From contig CBDUKN010000005.1 in NCBI GenBank assembly GCA_965367815.1, positions 32,001-96,000 of the forward strand: a DNA stretch of 64,000 nucleotides, in the 5' to 3' direction. This document shows positions 8,313 to 37,451 of the stretch, piece after piece (the first letter of the stretch is position 1; the number at the start of each line of letters is the position of its first letter). The position numbers were made by a program, and so were the translations under genes. The notes beneath the pieces were generated by a model that was not told where the DNA came from, did no database searches, and worked only from the letters and a program-made list of their open reading frames with translations. Origin of the DNA: an uncultured Thermoprotei archaeon (GTDB lineage Archaea > Thermoproteota > Thermoprotei > Thermofilales > B15-G2).

Positions 8313-11300
8313 ATGAAGGAATTATACAGAGCTCTAGTGCTACTGATGATACTTCTAGTATTTCTTCAGCCCGAAGTACTGGGCAAAGAAAATCCTTTTG
8401 ATCTTAGAAGCTTTATTTCTTCAATAGACTTCAATAGAGTGTGGAATTATACTAAAGTACTCTCTAGCTATAGATCTCGTGTACCAGGTTATCCAGGCTA
8501 CTATAAGGCAATTAGATTTATAGCTGAATACTTTAGGAAAATCGGCGTAGGGTATATTCTAGAGAATTTTTCTGTAACTTCTCCTATAGAAGAAAAAGTA
8601 TATATAAAGGTTATTGAGACAGGCGAAGTTTTAGAGGCTCATGCGCTTTGGCCCAACATGATTGTGACGTCTAATATTGATTACAAGGGGAGAATCGTTT
8701 ACGGAGGTAAAGGAAAGCTTCTTGATTTCAACGGAAGAGATTTAGAGGGATCTATTGTTTTACTGGATTTCAACTGTAGATGGTTCTGGACGAATGCTTT
8801 TTCCTTGGGTGCTAAAGCTGTAGTTTTCATAGAGAATAAGTCTACTTTGAGGTTCGATGCCTGGCTCAAAGTCTTTCATATGCCAGCATATTTTCCTAGA
8901 CTATATGTTGATAAAGAAGTGGGAGAAAAATTAATTGAGTACGCTGAAAAGGGGTATCATGTAAAAATATATTCTAAGGTCGAGTGGCGTGAAGTAACTG
9001 CTACAAATATTGTGGCCATGATTCCGGGAACAGATGTAATTTTGTCTAAGGAGGCTGTGTGTATAGTAGCTCATGTAGACTCTCTTTCTCCAGTTCCAGC
9101 AAAAGCTCCGGGGGCTTCAGAAGCATTTAACGTAGCTCTTGTACTTGAACTAGCTAGACTCTTCCTTAAGTTAAAGCCTAAGAGAAGTATAGCAATTTTG
9201 ATTACTGGGGCTCATGGCTTGGCTTTGGCTGGGGCTAGAGAATATGTTTCAGTGCATTTTAACGAACTTGGAGTTAGAATAAGGCTTGTAGTAGAGCTTG
9301 ATTTAGATTGGACAGGCTCAGAGCTAGCTGCACAGTACTATGGTTTGTTTTATAACTTGTTGGCCTTTGTTCCAGGCTATGAGGCTAGATATAGGTGGGT
9401 AAGAGACCGTATGATCAGATACATGGATTCGATAGATGAGGCTCTTGGAGAAAAAGTATTTGTATACGATACATTGTCGCTTACGTACTTCTTTTACGAG
9501 CCAATTCCCTGTTTCTTAGACAGCGAAGTATTCGCTTTAACAGGCATACCTGCTTTCACTTTAAGAACATTTTACAGCTTTAGACCATGGCTATACACGC
9601 CATATGATACTTTAGAGCATGCAGACATAGATTTTGCGGAAAAACAAGCTAAAATAGCTCTCTCTATCATCTATTGTTTTACAAAGGATTCAGAGAAAAT
9701 GCCTTCCTCAACCCCTACTACAAGAGGTGTAGGATACGGATTTTCGTACATAAAGGGAAGAGTGTATAGGTACAATAGAACAAAGGGGTGGTTTGAACCA
9801 GTTTCAGCTATAGTGGCTTTACCTATGTGGCCTTATCACATAGGAGTGCTAACAGACTCTAATGGGACTTTCATAATTAAGGGAGTGAGATACAGTGGAT
9901 ACTACTGGCTTTTAGGATTTAGGCTAAATGAAGAAGGAACTGTTGAAGCAGCTAATGAGTATGGTGGATTAGGGCCTGTACTGCCCATGCTTTTCGGTGT
10001 TAGTGTCTATAAGACTATTTCTGAAGTAAACATTAGAATAACTGACTGTGGCTCACTTGTTATTACTAATGCATATGATCCTAGGTTCTTTATTCCAGGA
10101 TATTTGTCTTTCTCGGTTCTTAATGCTACTTATCATACGGCGCTGATAAGCCGGGGGCCTCAATACTGGTACTGGTATTCTCAAGTACTTATTCTTCCAG
10201 CTGGCACAAGAATAGAAGTAGTTATGAAAAGAGGACTCGATGTAGTCGCAGTAATAAATAATGCTTCTCCCGAGAATCCTTTAGGAAAGGGCTACTCTAT
10301 TGAGAAAGGTAAGCAAATTTTGTTAGAGAACTTTCCTCTTGTGGCAGCAAGTACTCTTTATACAATACTAGACTATAGGATAAAGACGCTCAGAGTATAC
10401 AGCTATAGAGTTCTAGACTATCACAAAGAAGCAGGAGTCTTAATAAATGAAAGCAGAAGACTTCTAAGAGAGAAAAAGTATGGAGTAGCCTATGCGTCGA
10501 TGTTAAGAGCGTGGGCTATGGAGGCCCATGCGTATAATTCTTTCCAGTTTCTGTTAGGAGACATAGGTTTTGCACTAATAGTTATTGTTGTACTGCTTTT
10601 CATAGCTTCTATGAGATTGAAGCTTTTGTTTAGAAAGTCGTCTAATACTGTTGCATTTACTTGTTTTGCTTTATCGCTATTCGTAATTTCGCTATGTCAC
10701 CCGTCTGTAAGAGCATGCTCTTTAGGCCTCTTTATAGTTCCTTCAGCTGGAGCTCTGTTAGTAATAATAGTTGTTGTCATATCGCTACTTAAGACTTTTC
10801 TTTCTCAAATAATGAAGATTAAAAGAAAGCCTCCTAGAGTATTTTCTCGCAGAGTTTTTGCAGAAATACTTCTCTTATCTCTTGCCACTTCAGTAAGTTT
10901 CTTTATGTCTGGTAATCTTACATATGTAACTCATATAAGTGAAGCTAGGCTAGGGGCCAAAGGGTCTTATAGCGGCATAATGATAAGGACTTTTCCGTGG
11001 AGTGTTCTATGTGAGGCTGAATACGATATAATCAGGAGCGAAGTCAAAGCTCTCGGCGGGTACTCTTCTATGAGAGTATGGGCTTATCCTCACTATGGTG
11101 AAGTTCGAGTAAGCAATATGACTATTCTCAAAGCGTTCTTAGGGCTGGGATTAGAGGAAGTGAAGATATCGAACATAAAAAAAGCTATAGTCAAGGGAGG
11201 CTGGTTTAGTAGTGAATTCGCGAAGGAGTGTATAGTTAGCTCTTTCTTAGCTAAAACACTAAATATTAGTGTTGGAGACGAAGTTGTACTATATGGACTT

Positions 11301-12269
11301 AGGCTGAAAGTGGTAGGGATATTTAATGAAAGCATGTTGAGTGTATTTAAAGACCTAGACGGAGAGCTAATAACTCCGAGAGACATAATGATTCCTAGGA
11401 GTGAGGAAATTCCGGTACATACAGCTCCCAAGTACATAGTTATAGTGCCGGATGAACTAGCCCGCGAAATGGACGGCAATATTTATAGTGTAGCTATATC
11501 GTTTAACAACAGTAAGCTTTTAGTAGAGTACGCACGTCGTCTAGCTTATATCTTTGATGGAGTCTACGTTTATTTGTCAGTAGACGGTGAAAGATATATT
11601 GTCGCAGCTCATCATGCACTCGGATTCAAGATAATAAATCGGTTCTTCTTAATACTTGTACTTTTCTTTTCGTCAATTATTCTTATAGTCGCATCGGTAG
11701 AAAAGGAGTTTACTACATCTGATGCTCTTCAAGCAAGCTTCATAGGAGGAATCCTAGGCTATGTAGTACACTTAGCTTTAGCTGAACTTGGTTTATGTGA
11801 GCCTAGTGTCATAACTTTGGCGCCTATAGTTAGCTGTCTTATAGGCTTTGTTCCAGTTTCACTGTCGACGGCTTTCTCGAGGAAAGTAAGAGAATTAAGA
11901 GAAGCTGCTATAGAGGCAGTTCCAGTCGAATATAGGATTAAAATAGAAGAGCCTTTACCTAGAGCTCTTGATTTCATCGAAGAGGTCGTCAAAGAGGCTT
12001 TGACAGAAGAACACGGGTATTTGATTAAACGTAGAAAAAGAACAGGCGAGTATCTTGCTCTATTAGTTCAAATACTGCCTAGAGAACTTTTCCTCTTCTA
12101 TAAAATAGTATTTAAGCCAATTACAGTAGATGGAGAAACATATATAGTCTTAGAGATAGCAGGCAAAGGCCTAGGTGCTAAGAAAATTAAAAGACGTATT
12201 GTACCCGATATAGTTGAGCTTATTGAAAACAAGTTGAGGGAAAAAGAGGGTGAGAAGCTTGAGGAGTAG
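8313..12269 (+). CDS. Large membrane protein: signal peptide, PA/M28 peptidase-like ectodomain, carboxypeptidase-regulatory-like beta-sandwich, TM block, MacB/FtsX-like periplasmic core and TM block
   Basis: Signal peptide; SRVPGYPG; NIVAMIPG; VAHVDS; PGASEA; TPYDT; VLTDSNGTFII; GGWFS...LAKTLNISVGDEV...LKVVGIF...DLDGE (MacB core); multiple hydrophobic segments. Confidence 0.8.
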   Translation: MKELYRALVLLMILLVFLQPEVLGKENPFDLRSFISSIDFNRVWNYTKVLSSYRSRVPGYPGYYKAIRFIAEYFRKIGVGYILENFSVTSPIEEKVYIKVIETGEVLEAHALWPNMIVTSNIDYKGRIVYGGKGKLLDFNGRDLEGSIVLLDFNCRWFWTNAFSLGAKAVVFIENKSTLRFDAWLKVFHMPAYFPRLYVDKEVGEKLIEYAEKGYHVKIYSKVEWREVTATNIVAMIPGTDVILSKEAVCIVAHVDSLSPVPAKAPGASEAFNVALVLELARLFLKLKPKRSIAILITGAHGLALAGAREYVSVHFNELGVRIRLVVELDLDWTGSELAAQYYGLFYNLLAFVPGYEARYRWVRDRMIRYMDSIDEALGEKVFVYDTLSLTYFFYEPIPCFLDSEVFALTGIPAFTLRTFYSFRPWLYTPYDTLEHADIDFAEKQAKIALSIIYCFTKDSEKMPSSTPTTRGVGYGFSYIKGRVYRYNRTKGWFEPVSAIVALPMWPYHIGVLTDSNGTFIIKGVRYSGYYWLLGFRLNEEGTVEAANEYGGLGPVLPMLFGVSVYKTISEVNIRITDCGSLVITNAYDPRFFIPGYLSFSVLNATYHTALISRGPQYWYWYSQVLILPAGTRIEVVMKRGLDVVAVINNASPENPLGKGYSIEKGKQILLENFPLVAASTLYTILDYRIKTLRVYSYRVLDYHKEAGVLINESRRLLREKKYGVAYASMLRAWAMEAHAYNSFQFLLGDIGFALIVIVVLLFIASMRLKLLFRKSSNTVAFTCFALSLFVISLCHPSVRACSLGLFIVPSAGALLVIIVVVISLLKTFLSQIMKIKRKPPRVFSRRVFAEILLLSLATSVSFFMSGNLTYVTHISEARLGAKGSYSGIMIRTFPWSVLCEAEYDIIRSEVKALGGYSSMRVWAYPHYGEVRVSNMTILKAFLGLGLEEVKISNIKKAIVKGGWFSSEFAKECIVSSFLAKTLNISVGDEVVLYGLRLKVVGIFNESMLSVFKDLDGELITPRDIMIPRSEEIPVHTAPKYIVIVPDELAREMDGNIYSVAISFNNSKLLVEYARRLAYIFDGVYVYLSVDGERYIVAAHHALGFKIINRFFLILVLFFSSIILIVASVEKEFTTSDALQASFIGGILGYVVHLALAELGLCEPSVITLAPIVSCLIGFVPVSLSTAFSRKVRELREAAIEAVPVEYRIKIEEPLPRALDFIEEVVKEALTEEHGYLIKRRKRTGEYLALLVQILPRELFLFYKIVFKPITVDGETYIVLEIAGKGLGAKKIKRRIVPDIVELIENKLREKEGEKLEE

Positions 12270-14091
12270 TGCAGTTTTTCTTATTCTCTTTATTCTCTCA
12301 GCGATAATTATTCCTCTAATACTTTACTCGAATCTAATAGGAGCGGGATTTTCACAAATAAACGCTTGGCTTATAGTAATAGCTGTTTCAGAAATAGCTC
12401 TTTGGCTAGGGAAAAGGCTTACTCGAAGTGAAGCATTCTTAATACAGGTACTATTGCCTGTTATTACTGGTCAAGCTCTTCTATTCTACAATATTCTCTA
12501 CTACAGCTATATAGTGTGGAGCCCTTTCTCGAAAGAGTTCAGTTTCACCAAAATTATATGGTGGTTTCCCCAAGAGCCATTAGTAGCTTTGAATATAAGA
12601 AGTTTCATTCAGCCTACTTTTGCTCCTATAGTAGCGATTTTTGTTACAACATCTCTTATTAGTACTGTATCGGGACTTGCTTTAGGTTATATAGGATATG
12701 AATTACTGGTAGTCAAAGAGAAGCTTGACTTTCCTATGCAAGTAGCTGTAGCTGATGGTCTTTCAGCAGTAGTAGGAGAAGACCCCGTTAAAGTCAAGTT
12801 TTTCTCTATATCAGCCATTATAGGTATACTTTATGCAACATTAACTACACTAATACCTATTCTTGCTATGCGCCAAGTGCCTGCTCTGCTACCAATATTT
12901 ACCTACGACTTGACTCTAGTGGTAGAACATTTTCTTCCCGGAGCTACTTTAGGCATAGACTTTAATCTGCTTACATTCTCTTCAGGTCTAGTTATTCCTA
13001 TTAAAAGAGCTTTATGCCTGCTCATAGGCTCTCTCTTAGTATATGTAATCGGGAATCATTTGCTCGTAGTGACAGGCTACTGGACTAGTAGCCCTATAGG
13101 CAGATGGATGCCTGGGTCAAATATTTCCTACTGTATTAGATGGTCGTCGTTCAATTTCTGGACAAGCTTCAACATAGGTGTGGCTCTCTCTGCTGCACTA
13201 ATACCGCTTATTTTGAAGAGAGAAGTTGTCAAAGAAGTGTTCTCTACTATAGCTCAAGTAACTAAAGGTAAGGGAGGGTATGCTTCAAGAGCTCTTTTAC
13301 TGTTTATAGCTCTTTCTTTCTTAAATATCATGCTACTAGTGTTAGCTTTACCGGAGTTTCCCGTGTATTTAGTGGCATGTTTCATGCTACTATGGCCACT
13401 AGTCTCTACACTAGTATCAGCTAGCTCTATAGGTGCCTCAGTCTACAGCTTTAACATACCTTATGTCAAAGAAGGACTCATAATAGCGTCGAAGTATAAG
13501 GGTCTTGACGTGTGGATTTATCCGCTATACCTTGATCCAGGAGGAGCAGGATATACTGCTAACATGAAGACTTCTGTACTCTGTGGAGTAAAGCCAGGAG
13601 ACTACATCAAGTACACAGTGTTAGCAGTAATTATGGGCATAGCTCTCAGCTTTATTTTTACTACAATCCTGTGGTATATACATCCTATTCCATCATGGAG
13701 CTACCCTGCTACAGCATATAACTGGCAGATATCGGCCTATAATTTCCTCTTAAACATCTCGTGGATGAGTCACGGCGAGATCATTAAGCCGCATATAATA
13801 CTACTGGGAGTAATTATAGGAGGCATAGGCTATATTACAGCATATATCTTCAAAAAGGAAGCCCTTTTCTTCTCACTAGTAGCAGGTCTATCGCTAGCTC
13901 CTTCAGCTGCTCTAACAACATTCATAGGATCTCTAGTCAGTAGCCAGCTAATGTCGAGAATATATAAAGATAAGTGGCAAGAATATGTAGGAAGCGTGAC
14001 TTCAGGTTTAACTGCGGGCTGGGGAGCTGTTAGTTCATTTGCTTCAATAATAGCTTTTATCCAGAGGGGAGTATGGGTACTGCCATATTAA
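12250..14091 (+). CDS. OPT (oligopeptide transporter)-like polytopic membrane protein
   Basis: Many TM helices and the EKLDFPM motif of OPT-like families; overlaps the upstream gene by 20 nt. Confidence 0.7.
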   Translation: MRSLRSSAVFLILFILSAIIIPLILYSNLIGAGFSQINAWLIVIAVSEIALWLGKRLTRSEAFLIQVLLPVITGQALLFYNILYYSYIVWSPFSKEFSFTKIIWWFPQEPLVALNIRSFIQPTFAPIVAIFVTTSLISTVSGLALGYIGYELLVVKEKLDFPMQVAVADGLSAVVGEDPVKVKFFSISAIIGILYATLTTLIPILAMRQVPALLPIFTYDLTLVVEHFLPGATLGIDFNLLTFSSGLVIPIKRALCLLIGSLLVYVIGNHLLVVTGYWTSSPIGRWMPGSNISYCIRWSSFNFWTSFNIGVALSAALIPLILKREVVKEVFSTIAQVTKGKGGYASRALLLFIALSFLNIMLLVLALPEFPVYLVACFMLLWPLVSTLVSASSIGASVYSFNIPYVKEGLIIASKYKGLDVWIYPLYLDPGGAGYTANMKTSVLCGVKPGDYIKYTVLAVIMGIALSFIFTTILWYIHPIPSWSYPATAYNWQISAYNFLLNISWMSHGEIIKPHIILLGVIIGGIGYITAYIFKKEALFFSLVAGLSLAPSAALTTFIGSLVSSQLMSRIYKDKWQEYVGSVTSGLTAGWGAVSSFASIIAFIQRGVWVLPY

Positions 14092-16037
14092 AGCAAGACA
14101 GGATAAGAATATTGAGGAATTACGCACTGGTAGTGTTTATTTCAGCGACTTTATCCTCTATTTCAGTTAGAATGATATGTATTAGAGGTGCGGGACTAGG
14201 ATTAATGCTGCCTGTATACTTAAATTCATCAGCTATATTGCTGTTCTTCCTTCTGGCTATTCTCTCTGATCTTTTGCTAGAGCTAGGCTTTAAGCCCAGC
14301 AAATTCGATGTAGCTTTAGTCTATATATCAATATATGTGTCTACTTCTATTGGAGGAATATGGCTTCTAGCGGGATCTATCGGCAGAGCAATGTTTCTTT
14401 CTTATCAAGAACCCTTTAGATCGCTTACAGCTGAATATAGGCCGTACTTCTGGGCACCGCCCGGAAAGTACTTAGCTAAACTCATGGCATCTCCTATGTC
14501 TATTGACTGGAGCGTATGGACTGTACCTCTTCTTTACTGGTTTTCGTTAGCTTTCTTAGCATGCTTACTAGCTATTTCGGCAGGCCGTATTCTAGCACCA
14601 GTATTGGTAGATTTAGAGGAAATGCCGTTCCCTACAATTACATTATACAGAGGAATTAGAGATTCTTTCAAGAGGGATGGACTCATAAGAAGAATTTTCC
14701 TATACTCTGCGCTAGTGTCATTTTTGATAAACTTGCCGGCTTTAATTCGACTAGCAGTACCATGGTTCCCCCTGTTTCCGTTCCCTCAGGCCTATGGATA
14801 TACTATGACCATAGATTTAGCGGCCGTAAGAGAGCTCAGAGTATTTATTGCGCAAAACGCGGTTTTAGTTTTATCAATTAATCCGCTGTGGATTGCTGCA
14901 TGCTATTTGCTTCCACTGGATACTCTGCTAACGTGGTGGATTTTTTACATAATTTTTAATGTTGTGTACCCGCTACTAGCTGTTTACTCGAATCTGCTCC
15001 CTCCACTAACACTACCCTTTGGAGCTCGACGAATATGGGTCTTGCAAAACTTTCGATATGGATTGTTCATGCCGTATATAGCTATTACAGTCGGAGGACT
15101 TATTTCCTTAGGAGTAGTCTCTATAGCAAAACTATTCTTATTAGCTAAAAGAACTACACGGAAATTTCTCCTTTTAATTGCTTTAGCTATAGCGGGACTC
15201 TCAGTACTATCCGCTGTAAACAGATTTTCTCTAGGGCTTATTGTGTTCTCGCTACTTTCTACAATACTTGCTATGGCCATTTACTTAGGCATTCTTTCAC
15301 TTGTAGGAGAGAGCTTTATATTACCTGTAATGCTTGCAAGACCATTTAACGCGGCACTAGGACAGTACTTGAGCGAATACATAGGTTTATCTACGTCGCA
15401 GGCTTTCGTGCCAGTACATGTTCTCGGAGTACTGCTTCTCGGCGAAGCCTCCTACTCTATTCTGGCTCCGGGAGTAGCTCTACTTGAAAGCTATCGACTA
15501 ATAGCGTCGCCAAGGTATAGGCCTAGAGAAGTCAGAGTACTTAGAAATAGTCTAGCTAAGCTAACTATATTGTCGGTGGCAGTTTCGCTTTTCTCAGCGT
15601 ACTATACTATGATTTCAACAGCACATGAATACAGTATAGGGAGCTTACCCGGCCTTAAGACAATAGTCTTCGAGTACGGTAAAGCTGAAGCAGACTTCTT
15701 AATGGACGCCGCTAAAATAATGGTCAGCGAAAATTGGTGGACAAGTCTAGTACTCGGTATGCTGTTCTTATCTATAGTCTCGCTGATAAGGCTTAAAATA
15801 CTCGCTTTCCCCATATGCCCTGTAGGACTAGTTTTATCTACTTCAGAGTTATCGCTTTACGGAATGTGGTTTTCAGCTCTGCTTGCTTACATACTCAAGA
15901 GAACTACTCTGGCTTTAGGAGGACCAAGGCTTTATATGAGAGAAGGTAGGGCTATTGCAGTAGGAGTAATTTTAGGTTACTCATTAAGCTACATAGCGTC
16001 GTCTGCACTCAGTTTCGCTTTATACTTTATTCACTAG
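14073..16037 (+). CDS. Second OPT-like (DUF6785-like) polytopic membrane protein
   Basis: IDWSVWTVPLLYW, EEMPFP, FPICPVG and GGPRLY...IAVGVILG pattern; overlaps the upstream gene by 19 nt. Confidence 0.65.
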   Translation: MGTAILKQDRIRILRNYALVVFISATLSSISVRMICIRGAGLGLMLPVYLNSSAILLFFLLAILSDLLLELGFKPSKFDVALVYISIYVSTSIGGIWLLAGSIGRAMFLSYQEPFRSLTAEYRPYFWAPPGKYLAKLMASPMSIDWSVWTVPLLYWFSLAFLACLLAISAGRILAPVLVDLEEMPFPTITLYRGIRDSFKRDGLIRRIFLYSALVSFLINLPALIRLAVPWFPLFPFPQAYGYTMTIDLAAVRELRVFIAQNAVLVLSINPLWIAACYLLPLDTLLTWWIFYIIFNVVYPLLAVYSNLLPPLTLPFGARRIWVLQNFRYGLFMPYIAITVGGLISLGVVSIAKLFLLAKRTTRKFLLLIALAIAGLSVLSAVNRFSLGLIVFSLLSTILAMAIYLGILSLVGESFILPVMLARPFNAALGQYLSEYIGLSTSQAFVPVHVLGVLLLGEASYSILAPGVALLESYRLIASPRYRPREVRVLRNSLAKLTILSVAVSLFSAYYTMISTAHEYSIGSLPGLKTIVFEYGKAEADFLMDAAKIMVSENWWTSLVLGMLFLSIVSLIRLKILAFPICPVGLVLSTSELSLYGMWFSALLAYILKRTTLALGGPRLYMREGRAIAVGVILGYSLSYIASSALSFALYFIH

Positions 16038-16747: not shown

Positions 16748-19700
16748 ATGAGAAATAAAGCCGCTATTGTTATTATTGTCTGGCTAGTTCTACTACCAGT
16801 CTTCTCAAAATTTATAGCTCATCCCTCCTCATCTACTATTAAAATTACTTTCATAGATGAGGACTCAGAAAACCCTGTTGTTGGAGTTTTCTTGATGAAG
16901 AGCGGAAATAAATGGTTATATGTTAAGACAAATAATAGAGGTGAAATAATTGTTAACAAGAACAGTTTAATTTATGGCCCAAGAATATCTCCTAAACCAT
17001 ATTTTCCAATAAAGATAATAGCCTTAAAGAACACTACTATAAAACTAAAGAAAGCATACTTCATTGTAATGAAAAAATACTTAGCTCTATATAATCCATA
17101 TGAAAAAATAGAAAAAATTTCTCCTATTGGAGCTATCTCCTTTGAAGTAAATAATATGAGATTTGGCTATAAGAGCGACGCAAGATATCTTGGACTTAAC
17201 TCTTCAACAGTACTAGTTCCAGTAAGCGGGGAAATCATATTAATAAAAACGAATAACTTTATATTAAGTATAAATGCCACTCAAGCAAAATGGGGTGATT
17301 ATATTGAATTAGATTTAGGGAAAGTCAGCTGCAAATATAACAAGATATTCTTAGATAACTCTATAGCCAAGCTAAAAGAACAAATGAGTATACTAGAAAG
17401 AAAAGGTATTTACGTGGGGTTCTGTAAAACACTATTTGAACAGCTGATTGAACTTAAAAATAAAGCTGAAGAATTCTATAAACGCGGAAACTGGGAAGAA
17501 GCCCTTGTCGCCTATAAGAAAGCTTTTCTAATATATGGCGATATAGTAAACAGAATTAATGTTCTTAGTACTAGATCAACTTTAACTGTTCCTACTATAT
17601 CATTAGTTCTAGTTTTTCTTTCATACTTCTTGGCTTCATTTATAACTGACAAGAAGTTCAAGAAAATATTATTATATTCTTGCATATACTTTATATTACT
17701 GTTAATTATATTTGCAGTATATCCTATTTTACTTGAAGGAAATCCCTATCTTACGATATCTCCTTTATTCATATACCTATTCTCTCTGATAATCTTTATA
17801 TTATCTGAAAAGATACCTGACCATTATATCAGAGAAGGATTTTCTTTCGCCGCTGCTACTTCAGCTTCTCTATCAATAGTTTTAAGGGAGAATAGGAGAC
17901 GTAAATTGAGGTTAACCTTAACTTTGTTAACTATAGCTCTTGTAGCGTTTGCTGTACATACTTTAAACACTTTAACTATTATTCAGTGGTTCTATGAAAA
18001 GGAAGTAGCTTATGTATCTTCAGCATACAATGGAAGTATCTTAGTGACAAAACTTAAAGAAAGTGTATTTCCATATTATTCTCTTTCAATAGTATTTGTA
18101 AGAACTATTTCGAATATAGATTCTCCTCAAATAATTTGTATTAAACGTGAATCTTCGCCTTATTCTAAAGAGTTTAAAATAAGTTATGGCGAAAAAGAAG
18201 TATATGCACTAGGAGCTATAAGCTTTACATCCGAAGTAAAGTATTTTCTCCCTCTAAAAGAAGCCGTAATAGAGGGTAAAATTCCAAGTCAGGAAAGTGA
18301 AGTTCTCTTAAGTCAAACAATGGCGAGTGCCCTTGGAGCAAAGTGCGGAGATAAAGTATCTATTAATGGTATTGAGGCCACTGTTGTAGGAATATTTGAT
18401 GAAGATAAACTTAGTGAAATAAGAGACCTTGATGGAGGAAAGATATTGCCAGTAATGATAACTCGGGAAGAAGGGTCATGGAGACTTGAAGTAATTCCTG
18501 CCAAATACACTATTATCTGTTCCGAGTTACTAGGAGAACGCCTTAAACTGCCGCGCTACAAAATCTACGTAAAAGTTTTGGGAAATCCAGAAGACTACGC
18601 AAGAAAAGCCGCTATTTTAACCGGTTCGTTGGTTTTCATAAACATGGGAGGAAAAGTAAAGTACTATACTGTATCTACAGTTATTGTAGTTAAGGGAGAG
18701 TCTCTTATTATTCCGATAGTGATTGCTCTTCTAACAGTATTTGTTTCAATAATGGAGAATGTATATGAAAGAAAAAGAGAAATAAGTATACTAGCATCCT
18801 TAGGTCTAAATCCATCGAATATAGCTTATCTCTTTTCGCTCGAAGGAGCAGTCTTGGGTTTTGTGGGATCTGCTCTCGGAATGTTTGCAGGATTTATTGC
18901 ATTTAAAGCATTTAGTTTAGCGGAAGTACTTGTTCCAGTAGACTTTAAGTTATCTCCAGTAGAACTATTGTTTACAGTAGTTGCAGCAACGCTAGTATCG
19001 ATTACTGCGTCTCTTCCTCCGGCGCTAAAAGCGTCGGTCATGGTTACTCCTAGTCTTGAAAGACGTTGGAAACTAGAAGAACAGAAAGATTTCATTGAAA
19101 GAGGATTGACACAAACACTTCCAATAAGAATACCAGCAAATAGAGTAGAAGACTTTGTGAACTATGTAGTAAGCAAGTTCAGAGAACTGAGTACAGGTCT
19201 TTTGCAGAAAGTAGACTTAATTTCTGTGGAAAAAATAGGTGAAGAATACAGAATATTATTCAAGTACTACAAGGGAAGCGATATTAGCTATAAGTCGTGT
19301 TTTACTGAGAATACTTTAATATTATATAAGATCAGTGATAATGTCTACGGAGCTAAGGCTACATCAAAGCCTGTTACCCAGCACAGTAAGCTGGGACTCT
19401 ACTATGTTCATGAAACACTATCTTTTCTACGTAAAATAGCCTTGGAGTGGAGTTCGAGAGCCACACGAATACTCGTGGCTCTAGGAGAAAACCCTGCAGT
19501 ACTATACACTATAGTGAAAAAATATGACCCGTATGAAGTAATAGTTCTAACTACTCCTGAGCGCATAGAAACAGTATCAAATGCTAAGAAAATTCTTGTA
19601 AAAGAAAAAATTCGAGTACCTGCTATTAGAGTCTATTCATTATCTTCCCTAAGCGAGTTATTTAAACTAAAGGAAGACTTAAGAATTTTACTAAGTGAAG

Positions 19701-32290: not shown

Positions 32291-33598
32291 GTGTGGAAAA
32301 TAGGAGTTAGTGAAGCCGATATTACTCCGCCTAAAGGCGTTGAATTGTGGGGCTATACAGGCAGAATTACTTTTGAAGCAGAAGGTATACATGATCCCTT
32401 AAAGGTGAAGGCAGCAGTCTTTTCAAATGGAGAAACTACTGCCATTGTTATTTCAGCAGATTTAGGGGCCATTCCTAGAAAAGTAGTAGAGAATGTAAAA
32501 AGAAGAATTTTTGAGAAATACGGAGTTCCTGCAGAAAACATTATCATAGCTGCGACACATACACACTCTGGGCCTGCCGTCGTTCCTCTGAGAAGGGCTG
32601 GCGAGAAAGTCGATGAAAAATATGTGTATTTAGTTGAAAGAAAAATTATTACTGTTATTGAAGAAGCGTTAAGTAATCTCTCTGAAGGTGAAGTGTTTTT
32701 CGCTAAAGGTTTTGCTGAAAAGCTGGCTTTCGATAGAAGAAGAAAGGGAAGCCCAGTAGACTCGGAGGTACCTCTTATAGCTCTCTTTAAGAAGAATGCT
32801 CTTCAAGGACTTATAGTAAACTATGCTTGCCATCCTGTTTGTCTTGGAGAAGAAAACTTGCTCGTCAGCGCGGATTATCCTTGCTATCTCTACGATACTT
32901 TAAGCAGAGTTTACGGAAAACAGCTTACTACAGTCTTCTTGACAGGTGCTTGCGGAAACATAGATCCTGTATGGAGAGGACGAGGCTACAAGTACGCTGA
33001 GAGAATGGGGAGAGCCTTAGCAGGAGAAGTCATAAGAGCTCTTGAAACTTCAAGAGAAGCTCTACTTGAAGAAATTAAATGCGTTAAGACTGTAGTTAAG
33101 CTCGAGACTGAGGAACTACCTAGCTTAAATGAATTACTTAGTGAAAAAGCTAGACTTGAAGAAGAATTAAGAAAATTGAGAAAAGAAATTCCGGTAATAG
33201 CCGATGTTCGTGAAGCAGTCGAAATACATTCCAGAGAAGCCTTTTTATCATGGACCATGGAGGCAATCGAGCTAGTTAAGCGCGGAGAAGTTAAGTCAGA
33301 ATATGAGCTAGAAATACAGGTTCTTGAAATAGGCGACGTATTTATTGTAGGGCTGTCTGGAGAAATTTTCTCTGAGCTAGGGCTTGCTGTAAAGGAGCTC
33401 TGCAGAAAAAGAGCACTTGTAGTGGGATATGCTAACGGCGACATAGGATATATTCCAACAGACAAGGCTATAGATGAAGGAGGCTATGAGATAGAAAATG
33501 CTTTTAAGTACTATAAAGAATACCCGTATCCTCCCAAGAAAGGATGGGAGAAAATAATATTGAATGCAGTTAAGCGTCTACTTGCGGATCTTAAGTAG
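32291..33598 (+). CDS. Neutral/alkaline ceramidase-like amidohydrolase
   Basis: DITPP, IHDPL, ATHTHSGP, NYACHP, SADYP, GACGN and GYIPT...GGYE. Confidence 0.85.
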   Translation: MWKIGVSEADITPPKGVELWGYTGRITFEAEGIHDPLKVKAAVFSNGETTAIVISADLGAIPRKVVENVKRRIFEKYGVPAENIIIAATHTHSGPAVVPLRRAGEKVDEKYVYLVERKIITVIEEALSNLSEGEVFFAKGFAEKLAFDRRRKGSPVDSEVPLIALFKKNALQGLIVNYACHPVCLGEENLLVSADYPCYLYDTLSRVYGKQLTTVFLTGACGNIDPVWRGRGYKYAERMGRALAGEVIRALETSREALLEEIKCVKTVVKLETEELPSLNELLSEKARLEEELRKLRKEIPVIADVREAVEIHSREAFLSWTMEAIELVKRGEVKSEYELEIQVLEIGDVFIVGLSGEIFSELGLAVKELCRKRALVVGYANGDIGYIPTDKAIDEGGYEIENAFKYYKEYPYPPKKGWEKIILNAVKRLLADLK

Positions 33599-34714: not shown

Positions 34715-35701
34715 ATGAATAGACGAGAGCTAGTAGAGAGAGCTGTTGTTGGCGAGAACCTTGAAGCTGTTCCCGTGGCTCCATTAATAGGGGGGCACTC
34801 AGCTGTACTTTACGGTGCTTCTGTAGAAGAAGCCTACAGAAACTCTGAATTGATGGCGCGCCTTCAAATTAAGGCAGCTAAATTCTATGATGTAGACATG
34901 GTTTTTCACTACATGGACACTACAGTTGAAGCTGAGGCATTAGGAGCAAAAGCAAGTATTAAAAATGGTCTTCCAGCAATAGTTGAGCACTTACATGAAT
35001 TACCTGAGCCTATTTTCAGCGAAAAGGGTAGAATTAAGGTGTTCGTAGACGCACTAGCTAAAATATCTAGAGAGTTATCGTCGACAAAAATCATAGGAGC
35101 CTATGTTCTAGGACCCTTTACTTTACTATGTCAGCTATTAGGATTAACCAGAGTATTTAGAGAAGTCATGAGAGGCGAGGCGACTTTTACGGAAGAATAT
35201 TTAGTAAAGTTATCTGAGTACTCTAGAGGCTATGTAGACTTACTAGCAAGTGAAGGTAGAGTAGACTTAGTTATGGTGCTCGAGCCTTGCTTATCGCTGG
35301 TAAGGCCTGAAGTCTTTGAGAAATACTCGCGGAAAGCGCTAGAGACCCTGCTACACTACATCAAGAAAAAAGGTCTCTACTCAGCCCTGCATGTATGTGG
35401 AAGGTCTAACAAGATAATACCTCATCTCAAGTCACTTCCATTTGATATCATACAGTTGGACTACTATGTGAACATAAAGGAGGCAAAGAATATTTTAGTA
35501 GATAAATGCGTGCTAGGAAACCTCAATACAAAGCTCTTCGTAGACTCTACGCCGGATGAAGTATTTAATGAAGCTAAAAAGTGCATTGAAGACGGAGAGA
35601 GAAAGCTACATATACTAAGTGCTGGATGTGAAATTCCCTTACGTTCGCGACCAGAAAACATTAAAGCTTTAGTTAAAGCAGCGAGGGAGGAGTATGCCTA
35701 A
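34715..35701 (+). CDS. MtaA/CmuA-type methylcobamide methyltransferase (URO-D superfamily)
   Basis: DTTVEAEALGA, GPFT, Zn ligands LHVCG and AGCEIP, GNL and PENIKA. Confidence 0.82.
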   Translation: MNRRELVERAVVGENLEAVPVAPLIGGHSAVLYGASVEEAYRNSELMARLQIKAAKFYDVDMVFHYMDTTVEAEALGAKASIKNGLPAIVEHLHELPEPIFSEKGRIKVFVDALAKISRELSSTKIIGAYVLGPFTLLCQLLGLTRVFREVMRGEATFTEEYLVKLSEYSRGYVDLLASEGRVDLVMVLEPCLSLVRPEVFEKYSRKALETLLHYIKKKGLYSALHVCGRSNKIIPHLKSLPFDIIQLDYYVNIKEAKNILVDKCVLGNLNTKLFVDSTPDEVFNEAKKCIEDGERKLHILSAGCEIPLRSRPENIKALVKAAREEYA

Positions 35702-37451
35702 AATATATGTAAAAAATATAGATAAAGTCATAGTCTGCAATGAAAATGAAGTTCTTTTAAATGTTTTAAGAAAACATAGAATACAAGTGCAGGCAGTTTG
35801 CGGAGGACTAGGCTTATGCGGACTCTGCAGAGTACTGGTTGCTAAAGGAAATGTTTCTGAGCCTACTGATGCGGAGAAAAAGGTTTTAGGAGGACTTGTT
35901 CAAGAAGGCTGGAGACTGGCTTGTCAAGTGAGAGTTCTAGGAGATATCGAGGTAATAATTCCTAAAGTGCGTAAATATATTTTAGAAAACTATAGAATTC
36001 GAGTTAAGTACGATAGGTGTCCTTTAGCTGAAGTTGTTGAAGTAAAATATATGAAAAGCGATTTATCTTGTTTAGATTACTTACTTAAGGAGCTTGGAGA
36101 GAGAAATATTTCTGCTGAGAAAGTATCGCTTTGCGCTCTATCTAAGTTACCGGAAATATTCTATAAAGAGAAGAAAGCTGCAGTGCTTGTTGACAGAGAA
36201 TCGCATGAAGTACTGGACTTAATCAATGAGAGTGAAGTATATGGTATTGCAGTAGACTTAGGAACTACTACTGTTGTAGCTGGTCTCGTAGATTTGAGTA
36301 ACTGTAAGCTTCTGAAAACAGCTTCGACGTATAATAAGCAGCTGAGTTTCGGAAATAACATTATCTCAAGAATTTCTTATGCAATTAAAGGCGAGAAAGA
36401 ACTGAGAGAAGTTAGTAAAGCGGCTCTCGATACTATAGAAGAATTGATAGACGAGCTTGCTGGAAACAAAAGAGATAGAATATTCGAAGTAGTTGTTGCA
36501 GGAAATACTGCTATGACTTTACTTTTCTTGGGTATCTCTCCACATACTTTGGGATTCAAGCCCTTTACTCCACCTTTCACAGGCATGCTTACTATAAAAG
36601 CCAGAGAACTAGGCTTTAATCTTAATAAAGAGGCGATAGTGAGAACACTCCCTGTAGTGGGAGGGTATATTGGAGGCGATGTCATAGGAGATATTCTAGT
36701 TTCAGGAATGCTAGAAGATAAAACAGCTATTCTAGTAGACATCGGCACTAATGGAGAAATTGTATTGAAGAAAAACAATGAGCTCTACTCTACATCAGTT
36801 CCAGCAGGACCTTCTTTTGAAGGAGTAGGGTTAACTTCAGGAATGCTTGCTACTTATGGAGCTGTGCACAGAGTCTTTTCTACAAAAAGAGGCATACAGT
36901 ACGTAGTAATAGGAGGAGGAAAGCCCAAAGGAATATGTGGATCGGGATACATCGACTTGCTTGCTGAACTCATAAGACACGGAATATTAAATAGAAAAGG
37001 CAGACTTCTCGAAAACTATAGTAGTGTTAGAAGAAAAAGTGGCGTACTTGAATATGTTTTAGACTATGAGGAAAACGTAGTCTTATCGCAGAAAGATATT
37101 AGAAAACTGCAGCTAGCAATAACCGCATTTAAAGTGGGATACAAAATATTATTATCGAAAGCTGGTATATCACCAGACAAAGTAGAGAAAATATATGTTG
37201 CAGGAAGCTTCGGTTTTCACGTAAATCCGGTAAACGCTATAGAAATAGGTCTTCTTCCTAAAGCGGATCCTTCACAAATAGAATTCATAGGCAACGGGTC
37301 TTTAGGAGGAGCAATACTATACTTAACTTCAAGTGAAGCTAGAAAACTTTGCAAAGATGTATTCAGAAAAATAAAGGTAATCGAAGCTCCGATGGAGAAA
37401 GAATTCCAGAAACTGTTTTTAAGTAACTTAACACTAGAGCCTGTTGCTTAA
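35694..37451 (+). CDS. RACo/DUF4445 ASKHA ATP-dependent corrinoid reductive activator with N-terminal 2Fe-2S
   Basis: CGGLGLCGLC...RLACQ, VDLGTTT, AGNTAM, GYIGGD, VDIGTNGE, GPSFEG, GICGSG and SQKDIRKLQLA. Confidence 0.92.
   Translation: MPKIYVKNIDKVIVCNENEVLLNVLRKHRIQVQAVCGGLGLCGLCRVLVAKGNVSEPTDAEKKVLGGLVQEGWRLACQVRVLGDIEVIIPKVRKYILENYRIRVKYDRCPLAEVVEVKYMKSDLSCLDYLLKELGERNISAEKVSLCALSKLPEIFYKEKKAAVLVDRESHEVLDLINESEVYGIAVDLGTTTVVAGLVDLSNCKLLKTASTYNKQLSFGNNIISRISYAIKGEKELREVSKAALDTIEELIDELAGNKRDRIFEVVVAGNTAMTLLFLGISPHTLGFKPFTPPFTGMLTIKARELGFNLNKEAIVRTLPVVGGYIGGDVIGDILVSGMLEDKTAILVDIGTNGEIVLKKNNELYSTSVPAGPSFEGVGLTSGMLATYGAVHRVFSTKRGIQYVVIGGGKPKGICGSGYIDLLAELIRHGILNRKGRLLENYSSVRRKSGVLEYVLDYEENVVLSQKDIRKLQLAITAFKVGYKILLSKAGISPDKVEKIYVAGSFGFHVNPVNAIEIGLLPKADPSQIEFIGNGSLGGAILYLTSSEARKLCKDVFRKIKVIEAPMEKEFQKLFLSNLTLEPVA

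Follow-up and report, generated by a model that had tools for sequence, protein, structure and literature searches.

A remodelled M28-fold head on a MacB/FtsX-type membrane protein of an uncultured Thermoprotei archaeon and its possible role in nutrient capture

The DNA analysed here, which we will call the window, is a stretch of 64,000 nucleotides from an uncultured Thermoprotei archaeon (Thermofilales, B15-G2; contig CBDUKN010000005.1 of assembly GCA_965367815.1, positions 32,001 to 96,000 of the forward strand). It contains a giant gene (P0001; window positions 8313-12269, + strand), an ATG-to-stop open reading frame (ORF) for 1318 amino acids. The part of this gene that was flagged in a first-pass annotation is the extracellular head of a membrane protein, made of a protease-associated (PA) domain and an M28 aminopeptidase fold, and it is followed in the same chain by a membrane module of the MacB/FtsX type. 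As aligned, the head is shown to have an incomplete co-catalytic site, without the catalytic Glu, the ligand Glu and the last His of canonical M28 enzymes, and the alignments also show that this predicted rewiring of the pocket is fixed across the family, that is, across several hundred sequence clusters from archaea and bacteria. On balance, we lean towards reading the head as a non-canonical ligand-capture module of an uptake system, in which an oligomer would be held and passed to permeases resembling the OPT family. The giant gene and its neighbours form a widespread and unstudied gene module, the probable task of which is to capture nutrients for the neighbouring transporters.

The head belongs to the M28 family by both sequence and fold, and the assignment lies far above chance. 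It spans residues 30-465 (8400-9707, +), within which Pfam Peptidase_M28 matched residues 232-451 with an E-value of 1.5e-13 (score 51.3 bits; cut-off 21.3). Comparison with PDB sequences using phmmer returned the PA-containing aminopeptidase 2ek8 (1.3e-20) and BSAP/YwaD, 6hc6 (1.8e-11). Residues 1-750 were modelled from a 68-sequence alignment with a mean predicted local distance difference test score (pLDDT) of 91.8 and a predicted template modelling score (pTM) of 0.90, and when the model of the head was submitted to Foldseek, 2ek8 (3.7e-28), BSAP and PaAP ranked first, followed by the transferrin receptor (TfR; 1.6e-21) and GCPII. Using VIA-align, the head superposed on the Aeromonas aminopeptidase with a Z score of 29.4-29.5 and a root-mean-square deviation of 2.5-2.6 Å over 267 of 291 residues, while the Streptomyces enzyme and GCPII gave Z scores of about 27, TfR 26-26.7, and the glutaminyl cyclases about 26. 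The best structural match was a mutant of the Aeromonas enzyme, E151H (2anp), which carries the "Glutamate 151 to Histidine" change and is termed "functional" in its PDB title. Neither nicalin nor nicastrin was among the 50 VIA-align matches listed, which does not speak for a different fold.

The motifs quoted in the first-pass annotation are all present in the translation of this ORF at the residue numbers it gave, and its proposal of an M28-like fold is borne out by each of the searches described above. Its PA-like insert needs somewhat more care. The Pfam PA domain matched residues 137-207 (8721-8933, +) only weakly, with an E-value of 0.015 and 15.9 bits, which is under the cut-off of 23.9; nonetheless, the insert is spanned by the alignments to the PA regions of 2ek8 and 6hc6, and the PA-type stretches YGGKG (residues 130-134), DLEGSIVLL (143-151), and GAKAVVF (166-172) can be read from the translation. 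Ahead of the head, residues 1-24 (8313-8384, +) form a predicted signal peptide or membrane anchor, with a hydrophobic segment at residues 4-25, a model helix at 2-17, and a low-confidence linker at 19-24.

Equivalences to the catalytic residues of the Aeromonas enzyme were obtained by counting residues along its aligned chain. In the HMMER alignment, the stretch H254-V-D256 (9072-9080, +), which lies in the motif VAHVDS (residues 252-257, 9066-9083), is opposite H97-L-D99; H301 and G302 (9213-9218, +) are paired with residues 151 and 152; and D330 (9300-9302, +), opposite the second Asp ligand, is paired with D179. The register of the H301-G302 pair matters most, and it was found repeatedly. 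This pair stands opposite the canonical EE pair in the pairwise phmmer alignments to 2ek8, 6hc6, and 2anp, and the same register was given by a family profile aligned with those PDB chains and with a canonical M28 protein encoded by the host genome itself (contig C18, 421 amino acids, with the full H...D...EE...D...H set), which served as a register control. An invariant glycine, G307, located six residues past the first Glu, anchors this part of the alignment without gaps. Because H301-G302 align with EE, a His takes the place of the catalytic Glu and a Gly that of the ligand Glu. The first-pass annotation had assigned A300-H301, in the motif GAHG (residues 299-302, 9207-9218), to the EE pair; it was right that the acids have been replaced, but its register was off by one residue.

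The last ligand motif is represented by LYTPYD (residues 427-432, 9591-9608). In the alignments to 2ek8 and 6hc6, Y428 is opposite the His of YHTP, and the family profile agrees, which confirms the earlier suggestion that a Tyr replaces the last His ligand; the stretch from R424 to Y428 (9582-9596, +) also includes an Arg that is specific to the family. The loop that carries the bridging Asp in canonical enzymes (GAxD) is one residue shorter in the head, where it reads PGASEA (residues 266-271, 9108-9125), and S269-E270 (9117-9122, +) can be aligned in two registers that are one residue apart. In the HMMER alignments, the ligand Asp falls opposite S269 with 2ek8 and with the host's own M28 protein, and in a gap between S269 and E270 with the Aeromonas enzyme. 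The loop is therefore altered as had been claimed, but the proposed equivalence of E270 with the Asp is not fixed; it is possible that E270 takes the ligand-Asp role.

Active M28 enzymes have five metal ligands (His, Asp, Glu, Asp, His) and a Glu as general base. In the window protein, H254 and D330 are still present, G302 and Y428 replace two other ligands, the bridging Asp has become S269 or has shifted to E270, and H301 occupies the general-base position, with three of the six canonical catalytic positions being altered. For the Aeromonas enzyme, we take metal 1 to be held by the bridging Asp, Glu 152, and the last His, and metal 2 by His 97, the bridging Asp, and Asp 179.

The family was assembled in several ways. 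A word-index search gave 250 relatives of the giant protein, among them full-length proteins with 91% and 65% identity, and beyond these, proteins of about 1420-1700 residues with M28, MacB_PCD, and FtsX Pfam domains. Their named source taxa, as given in the records, are Bathyarchaeia, Thermoprotei, Heimdallarchaeota, Omnitrophota, Armatimonadota, and Planctomycetes. These relatives, together with genes from 80 genome loci described below and the paralogs of the host, provided 210 non-identical sequences that were aligned to a hidden Markov model of the head. When 1.84 billion cluster representatives were searched without regard to length, 537 clusters reached E ≤ 1e-30; among the best 150 of the 537 (pairwise no more than 50% identical), 132 representatives have a length of 1400-1599 residues.

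Across the 210 aligned sequences (the scope of all counts here unless another is given), the pocket is highly constrained. Position 256 is Asp in all 207 sequences that align there, and position 259 is Ser in 203. Position 301 is His in 195, which answers the question, raised in the first-pass annotation, of whether this residue is conserved among homologues. Position 330 is Asp in 181 and Glu in 12 (193 acids), and position 424 is Arg in 173. The shortened loop varies more: position 269 is Glu in 87, Asp in 63, and Ser in 23, and position 270 is Glu in 98, Ser in 44, Asn in 22, Gln in 21, and Asp in 18, with at least one acid at 269 or 270 in 205 of the 210. On either side of the His, position 300 is Gly in 158, Ala in 37, and Ser in 12, and position 302 is Phe in 68, Trp in 62, Gly in 23, Tyr in 18, and His in 15. 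An Asp or Glu was found in none of the relatives at 300 or 301 and in two at 302. Position 428 is Asp in 88 and Gly in 63. The claim that the H254-x-D256 motif is intact holds for both residues of the window protein, where H254 is at the first ligand position, but not for the family, in which position 254 is Tyr in 109 sequences and His in 76. Within the PA domain, W159, K186, and R196 are near-invariant (202, 202, and 206 of 207, respectively). Among the best 150 clusters, D256 is found in 150, H301 in 126, with a Tyr at 301 in 16 others, and D330 in 132.

Since D256, S259, H301, D330, R424, K186, and R196 are near-invariant, the pocket has not decayed but has been remodelled and retained. 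The earlier description of a pseudo-peptidase is sound in that the canonical site is incomplete throughout the family, but it misses this constraint; given a pocket remodelled under such strong constraint, "pseudo-peptidase" is best treated as an interpretation. Two paralogs on contig C12 of the host genome (C12:1-4192 and C12:18651-22883) have lost His301, to Ala and Ser, along with other pocket residues, and these may be degenerating or repurposed copies.

The closest relatives of the head, by both sequence and fold, are the bacterial PA-M28 aminopeptidases (AM-1 of Aneurinibacillus, 2ek8; BSAP/YwaD of Bacillus subtilis, 6hc6; PaAP of Pseudomonas) and the core of the Aeromonas/Vibrio leucyl aminopeptidase (1amp, 2anp). 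It shares with the bacterial PA-M28 enzymes the insertion point of the PA domain, the Asp of the HxD motif, the second Asp ligand, and a TPxDT motif. Unlike them, it has a His for the catalytic Glu, has neither the ligand Glu nor the last His, has a shorter bridging-Asp loop, and comes from a family in which the first His is interchangeable with Tyr. Those aminopeptidases are free or secreted, whereas the head makes up the N-terminus of a larger, polytopic chain of the MacB/FtsX type.

The first-pass annotation had compared the head to TfR, nicalin, and nicastrin, which are not known to have peptidase activity. Like TfR 1, nicalin, and nicastrin, the giant protein has a membrane-anchored ectodomain consisting of a PA or apical domain and an M28 domain without the full catalytic set. 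The suggestion of a closer kinship with these receptors did not survive the comparison of scores. The family profile matched 2ek8 at 5e-33 and 6hc6 at 1.7e-24, compared with 3.4e-13 for TfR and 8.3e-12 for nicalin, and it had no sequence match to nicastrin at E ≤ 0.001; by sequence, the family is therefore nearer to active peptidases than to TfR or nicalin. Because TfR and nicalin both score below the active bacterial aminopeptidases, any likeness is convergent and the loss of the catalytic set independent. The head also differs from the three receptors in the strong conservation of its altered pocket and in its covalent link to a membrane module of transporter type. The broader idea that the head is part of a membrane machine was well founded, as it is fused to a MacB/FtsX-type module and co-encoded with permeases of the predicted OPT fold.

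Between the head and the membrane are a beta-rich middle domain (residues 477-671, 9741-10325, +), with strands in the confident model and no family assigned, and a helical stalk that leads towards the membrane (residues 674-741, 10332-10535, +), where the model has helices at 674-693, 698-719, and 723-749. Three linking transmembrane (TM) helices follow at about residues 742-836 (10536-10820, +), based on hydropathy segments at 742-774 and 799-836 and on the helices of a second model, which covers residues 741-1318 with a pLDDT of 83.7. The MacB/FtsX-type module itself (10854-11918, +), defined by profile and Foldseek matches, consists of TM1, a periplasmic core domain (residues 867-1107), and TM2-TM4 (1110-1202). 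The protein ends in a predicted cytoplasmic alpha/beta domain (residues 1205-1318, 11925-12266, +), recognized from the secondary structure of the model and kept in the family consensus, with no Pfam family.

The module has the TM1-periplasmic core-TM2-TM4 architecture of type VII ABC (ATP-binding cassette) permeases. The family profile matched MacB (5lil, 9.4e-21, over the core domain and TM2-4), LolF (2.5e-13), and YtrF (3e-13) in the PDB, and the C-terminal model of the window copy was matched by Foldseek to MacB (5gko, 2.5e-7) and to LolCDE, with E-values ranging from 2.5e-7 to 4e-7. Pfam MacB_PCD fell below its cut-off on the window protein (E 2.9e-4, 21.6 bits, cut-off 27). This arrangement is shared with MacB, LolC/LolE/LolF, FtsX, YtrF, HrtB, YbbP, and BceB. 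What sets the giant protein apart from them is the lack of an ATPase in the same chain or in a neighbouring gene, some 840 additional residues at its N-terminus, which include three TM helices that they do not have, and a further domain at its C-terminus.

The copy in the window differs further, in that it has no TM2-TM3 segment and no match to Pfam FtsX. On this protein, PF02687 gave no hit at E ≤ 1, and the domain is present in all six other complete paralogs of the host that were scanned. Sixteen well-occupied alignment columns between TM2 and TM3 (after residue 1132) are missing in P0001, P0003, and P0004 only; 21 conserved columns before TM1 (after residue 844) are absent as well, and in the model the TM2-TM3 turn is just three residues long. 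Both losses are shared by the window protein and its relatives with 91% and 65% identity. In a comparison of 21 genomes from the order, the short form (1318-1339 amino acids) was found, besides the window, only in a congeneric genome. We take the TM2-TM3 FtsX signature to be the site of the ATPase-coupling helix in MacB-type permeases; judged by its alignment, the window copy is a stripped version without the predicted ATPase-coupling segments.

The genes downstream provide the second line of evidence. The giant gene is followed on the + strand by a gene for an OPT-like permease (P0002, 613 amino acids, 12250-14091), whose start overlaps the giant gene's stop by 20 nt, and this in turn overlaps by 19 nt a gene for a polytopic membrane protein with DUF6785 and DUF6784 (654 amino acids, 14073-16037; Pfam 7.3e-8 and 2.9e-10). 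A 105-amino-acid ORF comes next, and then a gene for the operon's second FtsX-type protein, with TPR, MacB_PCD, and an intact FtsX domain (1053 amino acids, 16748-19909; Pfam FtsX 1.1e-13). The congeneric genome has the same order, with its second FtsX-type protein being 52% identical. By analogy with LolC and LolE, this second protein might pair with the giant protein that lacks the coupling segments.

The association with OPT-like genes is not confined to the window. Eight paralogs of the giant protein are encoded in the host genome (2.45 Mb in 37 contigs); six are directly followed by an OPT-like gene on the same strand, and a DUF6785-type gene lies close to six. The family occurs in 13 of 21 genomes of the order, and several of these have four to eight matches. 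When the GTDB species set was searched with a 10-sequence alignment, 406 stretches were found to encode relatives, of which 80 loci were kept, and 47 of these could be assessed, with at least 2.2 kb on both flanks. One record among the loci belongs to Chthonomonas calidirosea, a species of which there are isolates in culture. An OPT-like gene is adjacent in 39 of the 47, from many phyla; a DUF6785-like gene lies within 6 kb in 25, and one or the other partner is present in 42. The giant gene is thus translationally linked to the OPT-like and DUF6785/6784 genes, and the adjacency is conserved across phyla. Seven of 15 relatives of P0002 match Pfam OPT (E ≤ 0.01), the best of them at 2.4e-16, and the paralog on contig C3 exceeds the cut-off, with an E-value of 2.4e-16.

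ABC ATPase genes, by comparison, are nearly absent from these loci, with one found in the 47 assessable loci and four in all 80, and no ABC_tran (PF00005) match above the cut-off was found on the window's contig. The ATPases encoded in cis at three Armatimonadota loci have their best host homologues on contigs C9 and C4. The C9 homologue (L096:4516-5876, -) is a pair consisting of a minimal FtsX (212 amino acids, with no periplasmic domain) and an ABC ATPase (240 amino acids) among housekeeping genes, and the C4 homologue (L097:4333-5061, +) is an orphan ABC ATPase of 243 amino acids with no adjoining permease. Given these matches, a motor acting in trans is possible for the paralogs that keep the coupling segments.

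The surroundings of some paralogs deserve separate mention. On contig C24, the paralog module (L091:1848-19305) lies between a TrmB sugar regulator and a divergent GH130 mannooligosaccharide phosphorylase together with a phosphomannomutase, a layout that looks like a polysaccharide-utilisation locus, while the neighbours of the C7 paralog are GH76/pectate-lyase-like genes. Contig C3 encodes a 1200-amino-acid protein (L092:2340-5939, +) with a Phospholipase B/AAT-type (Ntn-hydrolase-like) head and an FtsX part (Pfam 9.8e-17, 2.9e-6, and 6.2e-9), preceded by a penicillin-amidase gene (L092:208-2256) and followed by a gene for a 637-amino-acid unassigned protein (L092:5978-7888). It looks like the same design, a hydrolase-like head on an FtsX base, with another head.

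How could such a system work? The putative ligand pocket would consist of D256, the His or Tyr at 254, the acid at 269 or 270, H301, and D330, together with the family-specific R424, K186, and R196. We assume that the retained half of the Aeromonas site (residues 97, 99, 151, and 179 in that enzyme's numbering) is the half that holds the free amino group of the substrate, and that the lost half activates the scissile carbonyl. It is because the retained half is presumably the amino-group-holding one that we read the head as a capture module. The pocket would capture an oligomeric nutrient, with peptides being our best guess, and would present it to the OPT-fold permeases for import, and the MacB-type base would act as a scaffold or force transmitter. 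Given that the segments that would contact an ATPase are deleted, the window copy would probably act passively, or else in concert with the second, intact FtsX-type protein, whose gene is the fourth one downstream. In its most complete form, this becomes an undescribed importer in which a head derived from an aminopeptidase sits on a mechanotransmission base of the MacB type, captures oligomers, and controls the gating of proton-driven OPT-fold permeases, with an ATPase supplied in trans or unneeded; we offer this fuller scheme tentatively, and consider it less probable than capture by the head as such.

Several observations weigh against the capture reading and should be kept in mind. The family membership of P0002 is borderline: it aligns along the OPT/Yellow-Stripe-like model (PF03169; model positions 109-621 of 623) at 25.6 bits, just under the curated cut-off of 25.8, and a profile of 15 OPT-like partners matched nothing in the PDB at E ≤ 1. 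None of seven longer relatives (2404-2905 amino acids) has an OPT-like or DUF6785-like region; their additional length lies in inserts in the head. The guess that peptides are the substrate is not favoured by the paralog neighbours, which are often carbohydrate-related, as on C24 and C7. Nor is it favoured by six metagenomic bacterial relatives (P0251-P0256, 2404-2479 amino acids) with LysM domains (PF01476) and large inserts within the M28-like head, which hint that the ligands are glycans or muropeptides and not simple peptides. Co-evolution of the pocket, with one state of Y254, E269, D428, and F302 and another of H254, D269-E270, G428, and W302, was also considered. It was rejected by a tree-aware test on a FastTree phylogeny of 206 sequences built with the trait columns blanked: 13 independent pairs could be drawn from supported branches, and in these the remaining pocket positions mostly stay the same when 254 changes (median p of 1). 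Since that test was negative, we attribute the two-state association to kinship and have dropped the claim of co-evolution.

A further objection concerns H301, as a near-invariant His at the general-base position is also what one would expect of a working but altered enzyme, and H254, E270, and D330 of the window protein could, as far as their alignment goes, hold one metal. The head may thus still be a divergent hydrolase or another M28-fold catalyst, with H301 as base and a single metal at H254 or Tyr, the 269/270 acid, and D330, and its role might be to trim captured peptides or glycopeptides to a size acceptable to the OPT permeases. The conservation of D256, D330, and the loop acid fits such an enzyme, and so does the match, at a Z score of about 26, to the glutaminyl cyclases, which are M28-fold enzymes but not peptidases. 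The Aeromonas E151H mutant, the best structural match, was called functional by its depositors, although its rate is reportedly some three orders of magnitude lower. Known one-metal M28 enzymes retain metal 1, however, and both residues that would hold metal 1 are lost throughout the family (302 being Phe, Trp, Gly, Tyr, or His, and 428 Asp, Gly, or other), while in the window protein the bridging-Asp position is Ser or shifted. In addition, the tree of 206 sequences requires at least 20 switches between His and Tyr at the remaining His ligand, which is odd for a zinc ligand; because the two interchange freely, a hydrogen-bonding or stacking role at 254 fits better than that of a strict zinc ligand. 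We consider continued catalysis possible but rather doubtful.

That the system has nothing to do with uptake seems unlikely to us. The giant protein would then be an extractor or regulator of the cell envelope, resembling MacB, Lol, or FtsEX and serving, for example, the maturation or release of surface proteins or lipids, with the M28-like head used for docking or regulation and the OPT-like proteins as accessories. Its membrane module does match proteins that, to our knowledge, all work outward or as mechanotransmitters (MacB, LolCDE, FtsEX, HrtBA, YbbAP, and BceAB), and the small FtsX-ATPase pair and the orphan ATPase are available in trans. Nevertheless, eight paralogs in this genome and up to eight matches in its relatives look more like a set of nutrient systems with individual substrates than like a single housekeeping machine, the partners are members of an importer family, and the window copy has no ATPase-coupling segments. 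Simple decay of a peptidase domain without a function of its own, finally, is very improbable. The altered catalytic positions of the window protein and the loss of H301 in the two C12 paralogs are what decay would give, but the replacement residues are near-invariant in archaea and bacteria at a mean column identity of 28%, and the ORF is intact in relatives with 91%, 68%, and 65% identity.

Existing resources give little guidance on this family. A search of NCBIfam found no family for the M28-FtsX giant protein or for its OPT-like partner, and members are labelled in the databases merely as "M28 family peptidase" or "FtsX-like permease family protein." Our literature search found no paper on an M28-FtsX fusion or its gene module, nor any description of a characterised OPT transporter that works with an FtsX-type partner. 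The DNA datasets that carry the giant gene are mostly hydrothermal-vent or sediment metagenomes, and no RNA dataset was among those listed as carrying it.

A few other genes in and near the window may be of use to those working on this lineage. About 24 kb upstream of the window, on the same contig (C5, L090:4555-8256, -), there is a reverse gyrase gene with zf_Rg, helicase, Toprim, and topoisomerase domains, which fits a thermophilic host. A 435-amino-acid protein encoded at 32291-33598 (+) matches the N-terminal part of neutral/alkaline ceramidase (Pfam 4.7e-18), which is unexpected in an archaeon. At 34715-37451 (+), a gene for a URO-D-family protein is followed by one for a RACo-type corrinoid reductive activator with a 2Fe-2S domain, a pair that suggests a corrinoid-dependent methyl-transfer system.

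If the capture reading is correct, an unstudied type of transporter feeds many uncultured archaea of sediments and hot springs as well as members of several bacterial phyla, with carriers including Bathyarchaeia, lineages of the class Thermoprotei, Brockarchaeota, Armatimonadota, Latescibacterota, and Omnitrophota, and with as many as eight or nine copies in a single genome. Next to the binding-protein-dependent ABC importers and the TRAP/TTT systems, this would be a third solution. It would also be a second, independent recruitment of the M28 fold as the receptor of a membrane machine, besides TfR, nicalin, and nicastrin, and one in which the old active site was remodelled under selection and not abandoned. 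A head that binds could be told from one that cuts slowly by way of its invariant general-base-position His, and the window copy, having no coupling segments, would serve as a natural test of whether a motor is indispensable to MacB-type modules.

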